Source: Candidatus Electrothrix communis (GTDB lineage: Bacteria; Desulfobacterota; Desulfobulbia; Desulfobulbales; Desulfobulbaceae). From it: a DNA stretch of 24,000 nt. The notes under the pieces were generated by a model. The model made no database searches and was not told where the DNA came from. It saw nothing but the letters and a program-made list of their open reading frames with translations. Positions within the stretch are counted from its first letter, which is position 1. Each line of letters begins with the position of its first letter. Both the position numbers and the translations under genes were made by a program. This document shows, piece by piece, positions 16,358 to 24,000 of this stretch. The stretch spans positions 651,572 to 675,571 of the forward strand of contig CP130629.1 in assembly GCA_030644725.1 (NCBI GenBank), in the 5' to 3' direction.

Positions 16358-16753
16358 ATGATAAAACAGGAAACACACAGTGTGGCAATGGGGTACATCC
16401 TCTGGATTTTTGGTTTTATGGGGATGCATCGCTTTTATTACGGCAAGCCGATCTCCGGCACCGTGTATTTTTTCACGCTGGGCCTGCTCGGCATTGGTTG
16501 GATCATTGATCTGTTCCTGATTCCGAGTATGGATCGTCAAGCTGACCTGCGCTTTACTCCGGGTCCTACGGATTATAATATCTGCTGGATTCTGTTGGTC
16601 TTCCTTGGAGCCTTTGGGGTTCATCGCATGTACATGGGGAAATGGCTGAGCGGAATTCTTTACCTCCTCACTCTAGGGGTATTCGGTTTAGGTATCCTTT
16701 ACGATCTCTGGACCCTGAATAATCAATTGACAGAGGTCAATACCGGCGTATAA
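16358..16753 (+). CDS. TM2 domain-containing protein (two TM2 repeats)
   Basis: Two copies of the TM2 signature are present: GYILWIFGFMGMHRFYYGKPISGTVYFFTLGLLGIGWIIDLF and WILLVFLGAFGVHRMYMGKWLSGILYLLTLGVFGLGILYDLW. An AAGGAGAG SD lies 7 nt upstream. Confidence 0.85.
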   Translation: MIKQETHSVAMGYILWIFGFMGMHRFYYGKPISGTVYFFTLGLLGIGWIIDLFLIPSMDRQADLRFTPGPTDYNICWILLVFLGAFGVHRMYMGKWLSGILYLLTLGVFGLGILYDLWTLNNQLTEVNTGV

Positions 16754-18405: not shown

Positions 18406-18603
18406 ATGCCCCAACGGGGCTGTATCTAACCAGCCCAGGGTAACACCTTGAGTACACAATCCATCCGGGTTGCTCGGGGTATTACCCCGAGCTTGTTAGA
18501 TATAACCCTTTCAGGGTATTGGTACCCGTTAACCTGCCGTAGGGTGCAGATCCCTGTGTCTGCCCTGAATATAATGATGCCAAGGTCCTTGCCCCAACGG
18601 GAC
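18406..18603 (+). repeat. Composite hairpin-repeat cluster 1 (modules A-B-C-A')
   Basis: A is 18406-18455: atGCCCCaacGGGGCtgtatctaaccagcCCAGGGTaacACCTTGagtac. B is 18471-18520: tgCTCGGGGTattACCCCGAGcttgttagatataACCCTttcAGGGTatt. C is 18538-18568: cgtagggtGCAGATccctgtGTCTGCcctga. A' is a partial copy at 18574-18603. The cluster is homologous, module by module, to clusters 2 and 3. Confidence 0.85.
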
Positions 18604-18763: not shown

Positions 18764-19150
18764 ATGAACGCAAAACTTTCATTGCATAACAGCGAGATAT
18801 CGGAAGAAGATATCCAGGATCTGGTCTTATCGCTTACGCAAACTCTGAACCAGGAAACCGATCTGACAGCGCGACTTCCCGAAGAAGTAGGTGGCCCAGG
18901 CAGCAAAGGGGATGCTGTCACCATTGGAGAGATTTTCATTGCCGCCCTGAGTTCCGGCACGGTTGCGGCCCTTTTGCAGGTGCTGAAGTCCTATGTTGAG
19001 CGAAAACCGACTCTGCGCATTGAAGTAGAGACCCTGGACGGCAACAAGGTTAAAATTGAGGCTGAGCATCTCAGTCCGGGGCAGATAGAGCAGACCACCC
19101 GAGCAGTGAAGCAGCTTTGCGGTCAAACCGCTGATGACGGCAATGGCTGA
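18764..19150 (+). CDS. EACC1-like (effector-associated constant component) small protein
   Basis: I place the start at the internal ATG at 18764, giving 128 aa. The pattern is EEDIQDLVLSLTQTLNQETDLTARLPEEVGGPGSKGDAVTIGEIFIAALSSGTVAALLQVLKSYVERKPTLRIEVETLDGNKVKIEAEHLSPGQIEQ. This matches the recalled EACC1 architecture: an acidic N-terminus, G-x-x-G, a hydrophobic A/G/S-rich helix, a basic turn, and then h-x-h-x-h..DG..h.h.A. Its stop overlaps the start of the caspase gene. Confidence 0.65.
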   Translation: MNAKLSLHNSEISEEDIQDLVLSLTQTLNQETDLTARLPEEVGGPGSKGDAVTIGEIFIAALSSGTVAALLQVLKSYVERKPTLRIEVETLDGNKVKIEAEHLSPGQIEQTTRAVKQLCGQTADDGNG

Positions 19151-20912
19151 AAAACGCTACGCAATCCTCATTGCCAGCAGCAGCTACCCGGATGAGCCGG
19201 GGCTGACAGATCTGCGTTGCCCGGCGAATGATGTTGATGCGCTGGATAAGGTGTTGCGTTCGCCTGATTTGGGTGGCTTTACCGAGACCGTTGTTTTTAA
19301 AAACCGGCCCAGCCATGAGGTGTTGGAGCGGATTGAGACCGTGCTGGGGGAGGCGGGCCGGGAAGATCTGGTGCTTATCTATTTTTCCGGGCACGGTAAG
19401 CTGAATCCGGCAGGCCAGCTCTGTCTGGCCACGGCAAACACCAAGTTGCGGGCACTGGGTTCAACCTCCATTCCGGCAGGGTCGATTAAATCCTATTTTG
19501 ATCATTCCGCGAGCAGGAAAAAGATTCTTCTTCTGGACTGCTGCTACAGTGGGGCTGTGGGTAAAGATTTCACCAAGGGCGGAGTGGGTGAGCAATTGCA
19601 GCTCATGTCCCGAGGTCAGGGCACCTTTATCATGACCGCTTCCACCGGGATTGAGGTGGCAGTGGAAAAGGAGGGCGATACGTACGGTCTGTTCACCAAG
19701 CATCTTGTTCAGGGGATTCGGTCTGGCGAGGCGGATAAAGATGAGGACGGTTTCGTGGACATGCAGGAGCTGTATGAGTATGTCCATGAAAAGGTGCGGG
19801 GGGAAGGTGCGCAGCAGCCCATGAAGTGGGATCTTCATGCTAAGGGAAAGCTGGTGATTGCCCGCAGCGGCAAAGCTTCGGGAGGAAAACAGCTGCGAGA
19901 GGCGAAGAGCATATTGTTCAGGCTGGCGGCAGAGGAACGGCTGACAGAGAGCATCGTGTTCGAGGCGGTCAAGCTCCTTACCCTCCCCAAGCAGGAGATG
20001 ACGGCAAAAGATCAAGAATGCAGCCTGCTGGTCCGGCAGCTTGTCGGCACGCAGATCAGCCCACCTGTCTTTATTGAACAATGGGTGAGGGCCTGTATCA
20101 CATACAAGTCTCACAAGTCGACGGAATCGAAAAAGGAACGACTTGGTCCATCGGTTGCATCTCAGCCGAAGGCACCTGTTGTCTCTCCTGGACAAGCCTC
20201 TAGGCCTACGCCGCAGCAGGGCGACACGATACAGGATGAACCCACCGGCATGGAGTTGGTTTATATTCCCAAGGGGTGTTTTCAGATGGGATCAAATGAG
20301 TATGATGGTGAAAAACCGGTGCATGAGGTCTGCGTGGACGGCTTTTGGATGGGGAAATATGAAGTCACCCAAGGGCAATGGAAGAATATAATGGGCGATA
20401 ATCCGGCCAATTTTCAAAAGGGTGATGATTATCCGGTGGAGCAAGTTTCCTGGGAGGATGCGCAGAAGTTCATTACCCAGCTGAAGAAGAGATCCGGGAA
20501 GGAATACCGCCTGCCCACTGAGGCGGAATGGGAATATGCTGCTCGGGCCAAGAGTTCGTACAAATATAGCGGCGGGGACGACTTGAATGCTGTGGCTTGG
20601 TATGACGGCAACAGCGGTGACAGCACGCATCCGGTAGGTCAAAAAAAGGCCAATGCCTTTGGATTGCACGATATGAGCGGCAATGTCTGGGAGTGGTGCG
20701 CGGATTGGTACGGCGAGAAATATTATGCCTCCAGTCCGAAAAATAATCCGACCGGGCCGGATTCCGGTACGTACCGTGTTCTCCGTGGCGGCAGCTATTT
20801 CGATAGCCCGGTGTTCTGCCGCTCTGTCTATCGGGATAGCGGCGGGCCGGGGTACCGTGACCGTTATGTCGGGTTTCGCTTGGTTCTTCCCTTCCAGGCA
20901 GCTGGAAGCTGA
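19143..20912 (+). CDS. Caspase-like peptidase C14 domain fused to a C-terminal FGE-sulfatase (SUMF1/C-type-lectin fold) domain
   Basis: The ATG at 19143 lies within ATGGCTGA, an 8-nt overlap with the upstream stop. The caspase core is KRYAILIASSSYPD...LRCPANDVDAL...LVLIYFSGHGK (His84)...KKILLLDCCYSGA (Cys133/134). The FGE-fold domain, from about residue 375, reads GMELVYIPKGCFQMGS...PVHEVCVDGFWMGKYEVTQGQW...YPVEQVSWEDAQKF...YRLPTEAEWEYAAR...GLHDMSGNVWEWCADWY...VLRGGSY...GFRLVL. Confidence 0.85.
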   Translation: MAEKRYAILIASSSYPDEPGLTDLRCPANDVDALDKVLRSPDLGGFTETVVFKNRPSHEVLERIETVLGEAGREDLVLIYFSGHGKLNPAGQLCLATANTKLRALGSTSIPAGSIKSYFDHSASRKKILLLDCCYSGAVGKDFTKGGVGEQLQLMSRGQGTFIMTASTGIEVAVEKEGDTYGLFTKHLVQGIRSGEADKDEDGFVDMQELYEYVHEKVRGEGAQQPMKWDLHAKGKLVIARSGKASGGKQLREAKSILFRLAAEERLTESIVFEAVKLLTLPKQEMTAKDQECSLLVRQLVGTQISPPVFIEQWVRACITYKSHKSTESKKERLGPSVASQPKAPVVSPGQASRPTPQQGDTIQDEPTGMELVYIPKGCFQMGSNEYDGEKPVHEVCVDGFWMGKYEVTQGQWKNIMGDNPANFQKGDDYPVEQVSWEDAQKFITQLKKRSGKEYRLPTEAEWEYAARAKSSYKYSGGDDLNAVAWYDGNSGDSTHPVGQKKANAFGLHDMSGNVWEWCADWYGEKYYASSPKNNPTGPDSGTYRVLRGGSYFDSPVFCRSVYRDSGGPGYRDRYVGFRLVLPFQAAGS

Positions 20913-21046
20913 TCCTGCTTTTCCCGTGAGCAAAGAAAAATGAGGGAGTGGAACAATGGCGGCAAGGAGCTGAGGGACGAAGCGATTGCAGCTATTGTGC
21001 AGCGAGTGAATATCGGGGATATGGGGCGAAGCCCCGGCGATTTTTT

Positions 21047-21275
21047 TGCCCCAACGGGGCTGTATATAACCAGCTCAAGGTAACACCCTGGGTACGTAGT
21101 GTATCCCGTCCGTTTTCTCGGGGTGTTACCCCGAGCTGATAAATATAACCCTTTCAGGGTATAAGGACCGCAGGCATGTTGTAGGGCGCAGACCCCTGTG
21201 CCTGCCCTGATTTTTACCGCGACATCATGCCCCAACAGGGCAATATCTAACCGGCTCAGGGTAACACCCTGAGTA
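21047..21275 (+). repeat. Composite hairpin-repeat cluster 2 (modules A-B-C-A)
   Basis: A is 21047-21095, B is 21117-21163, C is 21181-21210 and the second A is 21227-21275 (which contains the 8-bp stem CTCAGGGTaacACCCTGAG). The order is the same as in cluster 1, with about 80 percent identity by eye within modules. The cluster ends 10 nt before the ATPase ATG. It is preceded by a small GGGGCgaaGCCCC hairpin and a T7 run (21023-21047). Confidence 0.85.
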
Positions 21276-21285
21276 GAAAAACATC

Positions 21286-22851
21286 ATGCCAAAATACTTC
21301 AACACCACAGGCCCCTGCTTCCCCCGCCTCCATTACATGCTCCCACCCAAGGATCGCTTGGTCGGGGCCAGCCTGGACCGCTATATCCGCGATGAACTCT
21401 ACTGGGTACTGCACGCGCCCCGACAGACCGGCAAGACCACCTTTCTTCAATCCTGGATGCATGAGATCAACGCCGGAACCGAGGCCGTGGCCTGCTATGT
21501 CAGCTTGGAGAATTGCCAGGAGGTGACGGAAACGGAAGAGGCTATGCCGCTGATAGTGGATGCTGTCAGGAAATGGGCCGGAACCTTTAACCTGCCCGTG
21601 CCGGAGTATCCTGAGAAGGTCGCGCCGGGCAGTTCTGTCTCCGCTGTCCTTGAGAGTTGGGCAAAACAGGTTGCTCCCAGGAAACTGGTCGTGCTTTTTG
21701 ATGAGGTGGATGTTGTCGCAGGTCCGGCTCTGGTCAGCTTTCTCCGCCAACTCAGAAGTAGTTTTGCCGGACGCGGCGCAGGTGCATTTCCTGTCTCGGT
21801 GGCACTGGTGGGTATGCGTGATCTGCGGGACTATCTGGTGTCCAGCAAGGATGGCAGGCTCCTCAATCCAGGCAGTCCCTTTAATATCAAGCATGATTCA
21901 GCCACCCTGAGCAATTTCAGTCAGGCCGACATTGCCGACCTGACCTCCCAGCACAGCCAAGCAACCGGGCAGCAGTTCACCCCAAAGGCCCTGGAGCGGA
22001 TCTGGGCCTGTTCTTCCGGCCAGCCTTGGCTGGTCAACGCCTTATGCGAACAGATCGTTTACCGGATCATTCCTGAAGCGCAGACAGCGGTGCAGCCGGA
22101 GCATGTGGATCAGGCACGGGAACGGCTCATAGCCTCACGGGCCACCCATATTGATTCCTTGGGGGAACGCCTCCGGGAGGAGCGGGTGCGCCGGGTGATT
22201 CAGCCGATGATGATCGGGGAAAGTGACCCGAATTTAGGGCGTTCCGACCGCGACGTGGAGTTCTGCCTCGACCTGGGTCTGATCGCCTGGGATGGTTCAC
22301 TGGTGATAGCCAATGCGATTTATCGGGAAGTCATTGCCCGTTCCCTGAGTCAGAATTATCAGGACAATATTCCCGCCCCAGAATTCTCCTGGCAGCGGCC
22401 AGATGGCAGCTTGAACATGGACGCGCTGATGAACGAGTTTCAGAAGTTCTGGGCCTGGAATTCCGAGATATGGGAGGAAAAAGCCGACTATACCGAAGCC
22501 TTTCCTCATTTGCTCCTCATGGCCTTTCTCCAGCGTATTATTAACGGAGGAGGCAGGGTGGATCGGGAATACGCCGCAGGACGGGGACGGATGGATTTAT
22601 TGATCCGCTTTGGCGGTAAGAGTAATTTGGTGGAGATCAAGCTGGTGCATCCAAGGATGGGCCGGGAGGCGACCCGTGACCAGGGTCTGGAACAGGTTGA
22701 GCGTTATGCTGATCAAACCGGTCCTGATACCTGCCATCTGGTCATTTTTGACCGGCGTCTGGATCAGCGCAGTAAATCCTGGGAGGAACGGCTTTCCCGA
22801 GAATTCTGCATAACGTCGTCCGGGCGTTCCGTGGCCGTGATGTGGTGCTGA
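21286..22851 (+). CDS. ORC/Cdc6-like AAA ATPase fused to a C-terminal PD-(D/E)XK nuclease-fold domain
   Basis: The 521-aa ORF has the N-terminus MPKYFNTTGPCFPRLHYMLPPKDR, the FNT-x-GPC..HYML start seen in a widespread ATP-binding protein family. Walker A is HAPRQTGKTT and Walker B is KLVVLFDEVD. The C-terminus reads GRGRMDLLIRFGGKSNLVEIKLV, consistent with the D...E-x-K nuclease motif. Confidence 0.75.
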   Translation: MPKYFNTTGPCFPRLHYMLPPKDRLVGASLDRYIRDELYWVLHAPRQTGKTTFLQSWMHEINAGTEAVACYVSLENCQEVTETEEAMPLIVDAVRKWAGTFNLPVPEYPEKVAPGSSVSAVLESWAKQVAPRKLVVLFDEVDVVAGPALVSFLRQLRSSFAGRGAGAFPVSVALVGMRDLRDYLVSSKDGRLLNPGSPFNIKHDSATLSNFSQADIADLTSQHSQATGQQFTPKALERIWACSSGQPWLVNALCEQIVYRIIPEAQTAVQPEHVDQARERLIASRATHIDSLGERLREERVRRVIQPMMIGESDPNLGRSDRDVEFCLDLGLIAWDGSLVIANAIYREVIARSLSQNYQDNIPAPEFSWQRPDGSLNMDALMNEFQKFWAWNSEIWEEKADYTEAFPHLLLMAFLQRIINGGGRVDREYAAGRGRMDLLIRFGGKSNLVEIKLVHPRMGREATRDQGLEQVERYADQTGPDTCHLVIFDRRLDQRSKSWEERLSREFCITSSGRSVAVMWC

Positions 22852-22856
22852 ATCGG

Positions 22857-23033
22857 TTGCTCGGGCTGTTTTACCCCGAGCTGATAAACGTAGGGACGCA
22901 GATCCCTGTGTCTGCCCTGAATATCCGGGCACACTAAACCGGGTAGGCACAGGGACCTACCCCTACGATAATGATGCCGAGGCCCATGCCCCAACAGGGC
23001 TGCATATAACCAGCTCAACGTAACACCCTGTGT
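22857..23033 (+). repeat. Composite hairpin-repeat cluster 3 (modules B-C-C(inverted)-A)
   Basis: B is 22857-22888, C is 22889-22920 and an inverted C copy is 22941-22967 (gggtaggcacagggacctacccctacg). A is 22986-23033. The cluster fills the whole 186-bp gap between the ATPase stop and the convergent AIM24 stop. Confidence 0.85.
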
Positions 23034-23037
23034 CACC

Positions 23038-24000
23038 CTACTTCTCAAAGAGCGTAGAGATATTCCCGAGCACAGACCCCTCACCAACGCTCTCTCCGCC
23101 AGCTTTGGGCGCAGCAGCCCAGATTCGTCCGGCCAGCCGGGAAAAGGGCAGAGATTGCAGCCAGACATGGCCCGGCCCGCGCAGACTGGCAAAGAAAAAG
23201 CCCTCGCCACCAAACACAGCTGATTTCACATTGCCCACATACTCAATATCATAATTCACAGTCTGGGTCAGGGCGACTAGGCAGCCGGTGTCTACCCGCA
23301 GGGTTTCTCCGGCCTTGAGCTCCCGTTCAACGATGGTGCCGCCTGCGTGGACAAAGCAGAGGCCGTCGCCGTCCAGCTGCTGCATGATGAATCCTTCCCC
23401 CCCAAACAAGGCCGTACCGAGTCTTTTCTGAAAGGCGATTCCGATGGCAACCCCCTTGGCTGCACAGAGAAAGGCGTCCTTCTGGCAGATGATCCTGTTG
23501 CCGTACTGACTCAGATCCAGAGGGATAATCTTGCCCGGATACGGGGAGGCAAAGGCGACCTTGCCCTTGCCCTGACCCTCAAAGGTGAACATGGTGACGA
23601 ACAGCCCTTCGCCGGTGATCAGTCGTTTACCCGCCCCAAGCATTTTATCAAAAAAACCGCCTTGCTGGGAGGAGGCAGAGCCGTCACCAAAGATGGTGTC
23701 CATCTTGATAAAATCGCTCATGTACATCATGCTGCCCGCCTCGGCTACTACGCTTTCCTGCGGATCGAGTTCAATCTCGACAAACTGCATTTCGTGACCG
23801 AAAATCTCGTAATCAATCTCGTGGGCCTGCCGTCCGCTCATGGAAGGAGGCATGCGGCCTGCCGCCGTATCGGGAGCAGTCAGTTCTTTGACCTGTTCCA
23901 CTGGCAACCAATCGTTAAATCCTTCCCGCCAGACCATGGTGGCCAGGTTATACTGGCCGGATCGTACCCCGGCGATCATCTGTTCAGGGGAAAAAGGACC
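23038..24000 (-). CDS. GYF_2 domain - AIM24/TIGR00266-family fusion protein (5' end beyond the window)
   Basis: The frame stays open to the window edge: ...[40 protein letters not shown] is a GYF_2-type motif. The AIM24 core follows: [34 protein letters not shown]...[31 protein letters not shown]...[44 protein letters not shown]...[23 protein letters not shown]. Confidence 0.8.

Follow-up and report, generated by a model that had tools for sequence, protein, structure and literature searches.

A translationally coupled EACC1-caspase gene pair in Candidatus Electrothrix communis with a predicted retroelement-diversified sensor domain

Between positions 18764 and 20912 of a 24,000-nt stretch of the Candidatus Electrothrix communis genome (assembly GCA_030644725.1, contig CP130629.1, positions 651,572 to 675,571 of the forward strand; the whole stretch is called the window and is numbered from its first letter), two genes on the forward strand encode proteins of 128 and 589 amino acids. 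The stop codon of the first overlaps the start of the second by 8 nt (ATGGCTGA). Both had been read, in an earlier prediction made from the letters of the window (the original prediction), as an EACC1-like protein coupled to a fusion of a caspase with a domain of the FGE-sulfatase/C-type-lectin fold; the coordinates, lengths and overlap of the two open reading frames (ORFs) given there were all correct. We conclude that the pair is a genuine, already catalogued two-gene bacterial cell-suicide module, translationally coupled, and that, as judged from sequence, it is an EACC1-caspase conflict system ('System 4' of Kaur et al. 2020). The original prediction missed one point: by its sequence signature, the sensor domain at the C-terminus of the larger protein is a variable protein of a diversity-generating retroelement (DGR). 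The features of the module are as follows.

18764-19150, + strand: EACC1 gene, 128 aa, predicted pro-toxin and caspase substrate (Pfam PF19953).
18899-18913, + strand: codons of G46-x-K48-G49-D50, the predicted cleavage region in a predicted disordered loop (conservation).
18914-18985, + strand: hydrophobic helix rich in small residues, AVTIGEIFIAALSSGTVAALLQVL, residues 51-74 of EACC1 (hydropathy, conservation).
19143-20912, + strand: sensor-protease gene, 589 aa, without a transmembrane segment (NF047832, Peptidase_C14, FGE-sulfatase).
19143-19865, + strand: caspase-like domain, residues 1-241, with H84 at 19392-19394 and the catalytic C134 at 19542-19544.
19869-20204, + strand: four-helix segment (residues 243-319) and disordered linker (residues 320-354), from the secondary structure and per-residue confidence (pLDDT) of an AlphaFold2 model.
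20223-20909, + strand: FGE-sulfatase/C-type-lectin-fold domain of the DGR-target (TvpA-like) type (sequence and fold matches in the Protein Data Bank, PDB).
20766-20897, + strand: DGR variable region (VR), 132 nt, residues 542-585 (adenine-biased differences from template repeats, TRs).
20891-20908, + strand: hairpin CTTCCAG-GCAG-CTGGAAG at the 3' boundary of the VR, the region of initiation of mutagenic homing (IMH), found by folding and ending 1 nt before the stop codon (20910-20912).
20917-20931, + strand: conserved element GCTTTTCCCGTGAGC downstream of the VR, the reverse complement of the sequence after each TR.

Both ORFs were recognised by curated family models. The small ORF scored 38.2 bits against the Pfam EACC1 model PF19953 (cut-off 23.6, E=1.5e-9) over profile positions 5-106 of 107, consistent with its proposed identity. 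It had no NCBIfam match, so the Pfam model is the test that it passed. The 589-aa ORF scored 179.3 bits against NCBIfam NF047832, 'caspase, EACC1-associated type' (cut-off 140); agreement with NCBIfam models therefore holds for the larger protein and not for the smaller. The larger ORF also gave strong matches to Pfam Peptidase_C14 (58.6 bits) and FGE-sulfatase (176.8 bits), as had been foreseen. PADLOC run on the window returned just a weak generic 'caspase' match and nothing for EACC1, and an Rfam scan of the whole window found zero RNA families. Together with the conserved catalytic dyad and the conserved pairing described below, the family models bear out the reading of the locus as an EACC1-caspase conflict module with a C-terminal FGE-fold sensor.

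The two genes have been kept as neighbours across related genomes, in keeping with the original prediction. An overlapping EACC1/caspase-FGE pair was present in all five further contexts examined (contigs L001, L002, L003, L055 and L056). L001, from the metagenome-assembled genome (MAG) 'Desulfobulbus sp. US4', is 99.5% identical to the window, and the pair is 87% identical in L002, 66% in L003 (E. aarhusensis) and 45% in L055, which belongs to a 9.5-Mb genome; in L056, from an acidobacterium, the pair is present with a small ORF barely above the EACC1 cut-off. The flanks of the pair differ in all five contexts, and no NTPase is common to them. Logan contig L052 is 100% identical to the window, and protein P0241, annotated as Ca. 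Electrothrix communis on a 4.85-Mb contig, is 100% identical to the window EACC1; for the 589-aa product, a look-up of the exact protein sequence returned no entry. Those of the 82 EACC1 homologues that carry a source name all come from cable bacteria or Desulfobulbus MAGs. Cable bacteria are multicellular, filamentous and conductive, and they harbor many paralogues of the pair, with several EACC1 genes in some genomes.

Among these paralogues are EACC1-type caspases in which DUF1566 (PF07603) replaces the FGE fold and whose caspase part is at most 83% identical; they include P0040, P0041, P0054, P0064, P0068, P0084 and P0094, and some genomes have both kinds. In addition, the window and the US4 MAG differ at 54 positions, 32 of which are crowded into 374 nt of the caspase domain (19397-19770) and are mostly synonymous. 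This cluster resembles a tract acquired by recombination or gene conversion, with a diverged allele or paralogue as the donor.

We examined an alignment of 21 homologues of 40-97% identity. The motifs YFSGHG and DCCYSG are both present in the window protein; H84 and C134 are invariant among the homologues, and C133 is nearly so, being replaced by Ser in P0089. C134 of the window aligned to C152 of KrAvs12, a residue whose mutation abolished activity (Evans et al., bioRxiv 10.1101/2025.11.14.688446). Because C134 aligns with this tested residue, and because C133 is not fully invariant, we assign C134 as the catalytic cysteine. The dyad that the original prediction had placed at His84 and Cys133/134 thus stands for His84 and Cys134 but not for Cys133, and the C133A mutant that it proposed would change the wrong cysteine. 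When compared with solved structures, the caspase domain matched the MALT1 paracaspase. The AlphaFold2 model of the 589-aa protein (mean pLDDT 77) divides into the caspase domain (residues 1-241), a four-helix segment (243-319), a disordered stretch (320-354) and the lectin/FGE fold (360-589). A linker of about 120 residues, as previously described, does exist, but in the model it consists of the conserved four-helix segment followed by disorder; L267, A275, L296, L300, F310 and W314 of this segment are invariant or nearly so among the 21 homologues. The hydropathy maximum of the whole protein is 1.1, and it has no transmembrane segment and no signal peptide. It is therefore expected to be soluble and cytoplasmic, and hence to sense inside the cell.

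The C-terminal domain most closely resembles proteins diversified by DGRs. Its best PDB match by sequence was 2Y3C, TvpA of T. denticola (E=1e-36, compared with 7e-26 for true FGEs), and TvpA was also the best match by fold (Foldseek E=4e-20, TM-score 0.71), with an alignment that runs gapless across the VR. In close homologues, conservation of the protein extends through RVLRGG, beyond which the sequences differ sharply. In the DNA, the constant blocks CGTGTTCTCCGTGGCGGC, CCGGTG, TGCCGCTCTGTC and the 3' end are common to the window VR and to those of L002, L006 (two regions, L006a and L006b), L013, L018 and L028, and the codons between these blocks change at positions 1 and 2 only (NNC/NNT). 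From this pattern we predicted the sequence of the TR, CCGGTGAAYTGCCGYTCTGTCAAYCGG, and scanned a metagenome collection with it. The scan retrieved exactly one contig, L045, which has a 132-nt adenine-rich repeat immediately 3' of a reverse-transcriptase (RT) gene of the RVT_1 family; an HRDC-domain gene lies 5' of the RT, and on the flanks of the cassette are two FGE-fold genes and a Roc-COR GTPase gene. Five further cassettes homologous to that of L045 are carried by Electrothrix-type contigs (L046-L048, L053 and L054), and L053 and L002 derive from a single sample.

Comparison of VRs with TRs revealed adenine-biased differences. Both VRs of L045 itself depart from their TR at 17-18 of 31 adenines and at none of the 101 other bases, and the VR of L053 differs from its own TR at 14 of 30 adenines and 1 of 102 other bases. 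The window VR showed the same bias when compared with either template: 21 of 31 adenines and 7 of 101 other bases are changed relative to the L045 TR (Fisher p=2e-11), and 17 of 30 adenines and 4 of 102 other bases relative to the L053 TR (p=4e-10). In multicellular bacteria, conflict systems that carry DGR-diversified FGE-fold 'antigen sensors' have been described (Dore et al., PNAS 2024; Vallota-Eastman et al. 2020). The cassette locus is syntenic across Electrothrix, in the order Roc-COR GTPase, FGE target, HRDC, RT, TR, FGE target, LpxK and LpxC.

The boundary of the VR has the features of a homing site. The 3' hairpin follows all 14 VRs of this DGR family and is replaced by an IMH*-like sequence, CTCACGGGAAAGC, in all six TRs, which part from the VRs precisely at the end of CCCTTCCAG. 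This is the IMH/IMH* arrangement known from DGRs such as that of Bordetella phage BPP-1. A few bases past the hairpin, each of the 14 VRs also carries GCTTT(T)CCCGTGAGC (20917-20931 in the window), and each of the six TRs continues directly with CTCACGGGAAAGC, the reverse complement of this VR-flank element (L045 9785-9797, and the flanks in L046-L048, L053 and L054). By RNA-DNA pairing, the element could tag remote targets for homing, and as such may provide their address. We know of no description of such a reverse-complement element at the flanks of VR and TR.

The assembled VRs of two relatives are altered. The US4 assembly (L001) lacks 246 nt, from the VR interior to just before the terminator T-run (20793-21034 of the window), which shortens its protein (P0001, 564 aa); this is either a true deletion at a CGGC microhomology or an artefact of assembly, which may have collapsed a hypervariable or repeated region. 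In the 87%-identical homologue, a 1-nt insertion in the VR (L002 9646-9777) frameshifts the last ~25 codons and gives P0002 its odd C-terminus, as a result of either decay of the target or a long-read indel error.

What an EACC1 protein does has been worked out for a single pair, KrEACC1-KrAvs12 of Ktedonobacter racemifer, the sole EACC1 module studied experimentally. The caspase domain of Avs12 cleaves EACC1; of the KrEACC1 fragments only the C-terminal one is toxic, the N-terminal part is autoinhibitory, and the cleaved protein permeabilises liposomes (Evans et al., bioRxiv 10.1101/2025.11.14.688446). The earlier statement that no EACC1-caspase pair had been characterised biochemically is therefore outdated. 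Since KrEACC1 is cleaved and its C-terminal fragment is toxic, EACC1 is the effector rather than a gate, and the suggestion that it would gate or localise the protease is the reverse of what holds in the only tested family member, where EACC1 is both substrate and death effector.

The window EACC1 has a layout on which such a role can be mapped. An N-terminal part is followed by a loop with a conserved KGD motif, a hydrophobic small-residue helix that this motif immediately precedes, and two beta-strands. In alignments of 21-25 EACC1 sequences, G46, K48 and G49 are invariant or nearly so and D50 is kept in most. Hydropathy (Kyte-Doolittle, 19-residue window) reaches its maximum of 1.73 at a segment centred on residue 65. 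EACC1 was defined as having one conserved transmembrane helix with a patch of Gly and small residues (Kaur et al. 2020), and the window helix has such a patch, with G55 and G65 nearly invariant. By analogy with KrEACC1, cleavage is predicted in the G46-D50 loop, with a putative bond after D50 that would yield computed fragments of 5.4 and 8.3 kDa; the KrEACC1 fragments are 5.7 and 7.1 kDa, with a putative cut after Asp49 (Evans et al., bioRxiv 10.1101/2025.11.14.688446). The register given by hhalign (E=9e-5, 59% probability) equates window G55 with G51 of KrEACC1, so that Asp49, 2 residues before the equivalent Gly, falls three residues past window D50. If the specificity of the enzyme is metacaspase-like, K48 would be an alternative P1 residue.

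Collectively, we consider it likely that the pair is a self-contained EACC1-caspase suicide module in which a DGR-variable sensor acts on the caspase, the caspase on EACC1, and cleaved EACC1 on the membrane. The C-terminal lectin/FGE domain, with a ligand-binding face encoded by the VR, would be a hypervariable intracellular receptor. A cognate and probably multivalent ligand, most likely a phage component, would bring the caspase domains (H84/C134) together and thereby activate them; these two steps, ligand binding and activation, we infer. The caspase would then cut the co-expressed 128-aa EACC1 pro-toxin in the G-x-K-G-D50 loop, and the freed C-terminal fragment of ~8 kDa, comprising the hydrophobic helix and the beta-strands, would oligomerise and form membrane pores, as may be carried over from one distant, tested family member. 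Death of the cell would spare the remaining filament. The variable region would be supplied in trans by a cable-bacterial DGR, whose HRDC accessory gene, RT and TR lie beside a Roc-COR GTPase gene in relatives.

Several points weigh against this chain of events as drawn. The window EACC1 and KrEACC1 are too diverged for BLASTP, which gave no alignment between them, and the predicted structure of the window EACC1 has a pLDDT of 40, unusable for a fold search. With these two results and an hhalign probability of 59%, the transfer of the mechanism rests on family membership. Furthermore, the cleavage site of KrEACC1 is itself only 'putative'. Finally, the module has no NTPase to drive oligomerisation as in Avs12, and the activation step is therefore conjecture.

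The account most difficult to separate from ours concerns the VR. We propose that it was, and perhaps still is, written in trans by a cable-bacterial DGR whose cassette is at a different chromosomal locus in relatives. Alternatively, the VR could be a fossil: a DGR would have written it in the past, the RT/TR cassette would since have been lost or the gene would no longer be targeted, and the lectin domain would now have a fixed specificity. We lean against this alternative but regard it as quite possible, and a series of results speaks for it and against present-day writing. When the window was searched with the VR by sensitive blastn, the VR itself was the sole match, and no TR was found. 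ORFs containing the YxDD motif of RTs were absent from the window, L001-L003, L006, L013, L018 and L028, and neither RT nor TR was found in the 3-10 kb on each side of the pair or of the VR match in relatives. The 120 best matches to the RT of this DGR family included none named E. communis. A scan of a genome collection with a constant 19-mer yielded VRs and chance matches only and no TR, the source genome not being among the matches. In addition, the VR has 4-7 non-adenine mismatches to the heterologous TRs, and thus some to every TR found, the genome's own TR not being among them. The VR is also identical in the independent read set L052, so that no within-population variation was seen. Finally, E. 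laxa (L006 1-5000) has two IS200/Y1-transposase genes and REP-like (repetitive extragenic palindrome-like) elements at the place where L045, L053 and L054 have HRDC-RT-TR. E. laxa thus seems to have lost its DGR with two variable regions left behind, and the VR in the window could accordingly be a fossil of this kind.

Other observations favor a VR that is still in use. Both the homing hairpin and the element that follows it are intact, and L002 shows 96% identity over the 150 nt next to the VR on its downstream side, the terminator site included. The window and the 99.5%-identical US4 contig have only three VR differences (20769, 20772 and 20773), all of them at TR adenines. Two short-read contigs of the locus end at the VR edges, where short-read assemblies thus break. 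Moreover, DGR cassettes often lie on short contigs that MAGs lose. The non-adenine mismatches have a pattern of their own: where the window VR disagrees with the L053 TR, the L045 TR agrees with the VR, and the L053 TR resolves most of the mismatches to L045. Because the two sets are complementary, the TR of this genome is perhaps a mosaic of both types, as this pattern suggests.

A broader version of the in-trans reading is that a single HRDC-RT-TR cassette beside the Roc-COR GTPase gene writes into several unlinked lectin-fold sensor genes, that of this module included. Each filament lineage would then possess a hypermutable receptor repertoire wired to a gasdermin-like pore toxin without an NTPase switch. 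We offer this only tentatively and think it rather unlikely in its full extent. If it is true, the unexplained 'ghost cells' in filaments of cable bacteria could stem from the in-trans DGR together with the EACC1-caspase system.

The same machinery might also serve ends other than defence against phages, namely developmental or social death through filament fragmentation, 'ghost cell' formation or discrimination between kin and non-self. This is an unlikely but reasonable alternative, given that 650 of 671 EACC1 systems are in multicellular prokaryotes, that cable bacteria have unexplained dead 'ghost' cells as well as caspase-domain genes whose role was given as not known in a 2025 paper, and that Evans et al. 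raise non-defence stress roles for EACC1 modules fused to DnaK. However, a DGR-diversified receptor better suits a fast-evolving foreign ligand than a fixed developmental cue, the protein has neither signal peptide nor transmembrane segment and would hence sense within the cell, and the tested family member answers phage proteins (Evans et al.). We infer a defence role for the module.

We give less credence still to a model in which the caspase is localised or licensed by EACC1, acting as a gate or anchor in the membrane, and goes on to cut other cellular targets, and in which the neighbouring ATPase-nuclease gene (21286-22851) supplies a non-canonical NTPase partner. In its favor, Kaur et al. 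originally proposed EACC1 to be a sensor, associated with the membrane, which activates the caspase, and the ATPase gene is adjacent to the pair in the window and in L001; in L002, an 86% identical orthologue lies 3.7 kb downstream, with two other genes between it and the pair. However, KrEACC1 is cleaved, and the resulting C-terminal fragment suffices to kill cells and permeabilise liposomes (Evans et al.). The ATPase gene is missing beside the pair in L003, L055 and L056, so that the non-canonical pairing which the original prediction had raised was not supported. The original prediction had also remarked that the usual STAND or MoxR NTPase partner was not adjacent. System 4 is a self-standing two-gene system with no NTPase in its definition (Kaur, Burroughs, Iyer & Aravind, eLife 2020), and therefore no such partner is missing. 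Consistent with this definition, Pfam and NCBIfam models detected no NTPase domain in the 589-aa protein, and the sole ATPase gene nearby is not conserved beside the pair. A terminator and a repeat cluster also separate the ATPase gene from the pair, among the following features of the surroundings.

18406-18603, no strand: upstream cluster of REP-like hairpins (folding z = -3.4), outside the function of the module.
21023-21047, + strand: hairpin GGGGC-GAA-GCCCC followed by a T run, resembling an intrinsic terminator (folding), which ends the two-gene operon.
21047-21275, no strand: downstream cluster of REP-like hairpins with two copies of a 60-nt unit (repeat comparison).
22855-23046: third repeat cluster (repeat comparison).

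The two clusters that had been described as bracketing the pair are real: the 60-nt unit occurs in four copies with companion hairpins, compared with 0 expected from shuffles. They are, however, REP-like elements found genus-wide. Copies of their core motif, TGCCCCAANGGGGC, are dispersed over both strands of the intergenic DNA in every Electrothrix locus fetched, and the motif adjoins the IS200/Y1 transposase genes in L006. Given this distribution and the third cluster, the repeats are not specific to the module and do not mark its boundary. We also considered the clusters as mobile-element ends of the module and rejected this, since the motif is dispersed genus-wide and brackets a neighbouring gene as well. 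That gene, the 521-aa AAA-type ATPase/PD-(D/E)XK-like gene at 21286-22851, is likewise REP-bracketed, and its AAA and PD-(D/E)XK Pfam matches are all below threshold, a further point against the gate model. L002 also has AAA_14/DUF4143 and AAA-ATPase_like/PDDEXK_9 genes near the pair, a loose association of orphan ATPase genes with the locus. Other neighbours in the window are a protein with GYF_2 and AIM24 domains (23038-23979, - strand) and a TM2-domain protein (16358-16753, + strand); GYF-domain proteins are coupled to some GTPase-centric conflict systems (Kaur et al. 2020).

Scarcely credible is the idea that the module is a protease-enzyme fusion whose C-terminal domain works as a 'SUMF1/EgtB/PvdO family nonheme iron enzyme', the NCBI name of the 99% identical P0001: the Pfam FGE-sulfatase match is strong, but D554, in a segment made of hypervariable codons, aligned to the first of the two catalytic or Cu-binding Cys of S. 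coelicolor FGE, all NCBIfam equivalog cut-offs were missed (PvdO 105 against 500 bits, EgtB 84 against 360), and the closest solved relative is TvpA, a non-enzymatic DGR protein. We thus rejected the domain as an FGE enzyme; its fold is complete, as had been claimed, but of the catalytic cysteine pair seen in true FGEs one member is absent.

Comparison with known systems places the module as follows. In System 4, the caspase is constant, there are ~50 alternative C-terminal domains, and the system is strongly enriched in multicellular prokaryotes (Kaur et al. 2020). The window module shares with it a 5' EACC1 gene encoding a small-residue transmembrane helix, tight coupling, a 3' gene whose product has a caspase at the N-terminus and a variable domain at the C-terminus, and a multicellular host. 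It differs in its host lineage: System 4 was described as prevalent in actinobacteria and sporadic in proteobacteria, whereas here it is found in a cable bacterium, a relative of the Desulfobulbaceae, and cable bacteria show an expansion into paralogues that carry FGE or DUF1566 sensors. With KrEACC1-KrAvs12 the module has in common the catalytic cysteine, which is the second Cys of LDCC in both (C152 there, C134 here), an EACC1 loop with an Asp right before the hydrophobic helix, and similar fragment sizes. By contrast, the K. racemifer module senses through a STAND NTPase (Avs12), which phage tail-connector proteins trigger, while the window module has no NTPase and a sensor of the DGR-type lectin fold; the caspase domains are ~21% identical, and the EACC1s are beyond the reach of BLASTP.

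As in the DGR variable proteins TvpA (2Y3C) and Mtd of Bordetella phage, the VR lies at the C-terminus within a lectin fold. Further likenesses to DGR proteins and antigen sensors are an adenine bias in the differences of the VR from the TRs of relatives, a TR that contains AAY codons, a hairpin at the VR 3' end whose loop has 4 nt, a cassette of RT and HRDC genes (here in relatives) and N-terminal conflict-effector domains. The described antigen sensors (Dore et al., PNAS 2024; Vallota-Eastman et al. 2020) differ in that the target here is remote from any RT or TR, and in that the output here is an EACC1-caspase pair and there a MoxR-vWA/VMAP or STAND system. Evans et al. drew the comparison with bacterial gasdermins and with mammalian caspase-gasdermin D, where a caspase-family protease likewise frees a pore former from the inhibitory part of a neighbouring gene's product; there is no relation in sequence or fold, and EACC1 has ~128 aa with an N-terminal inhibitory part.

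The gene pair has thus been known since 2020, both Pfam and NCBIfam have curated models for it, and the mechanism by which it kills was elucidated in 2025. A link between EACC1-associated proteases and DGRs is mentioned in one sentence by Evans et al. (bioRxiv 10.1101/2025.11.14.688446), and our search of the literature found no paper naming both DGRs and Electrothrix. What is new here is a trigger domain, in cable bacteria, that appears to be a hypervariable lectin fold written by a DGR, without an intervening NTPase. The locus offers for these bacteria a testable chain of programmed cell death that would lead from a variable receptor through caspase C134 and EACC1 cleavage to a membrane pore.

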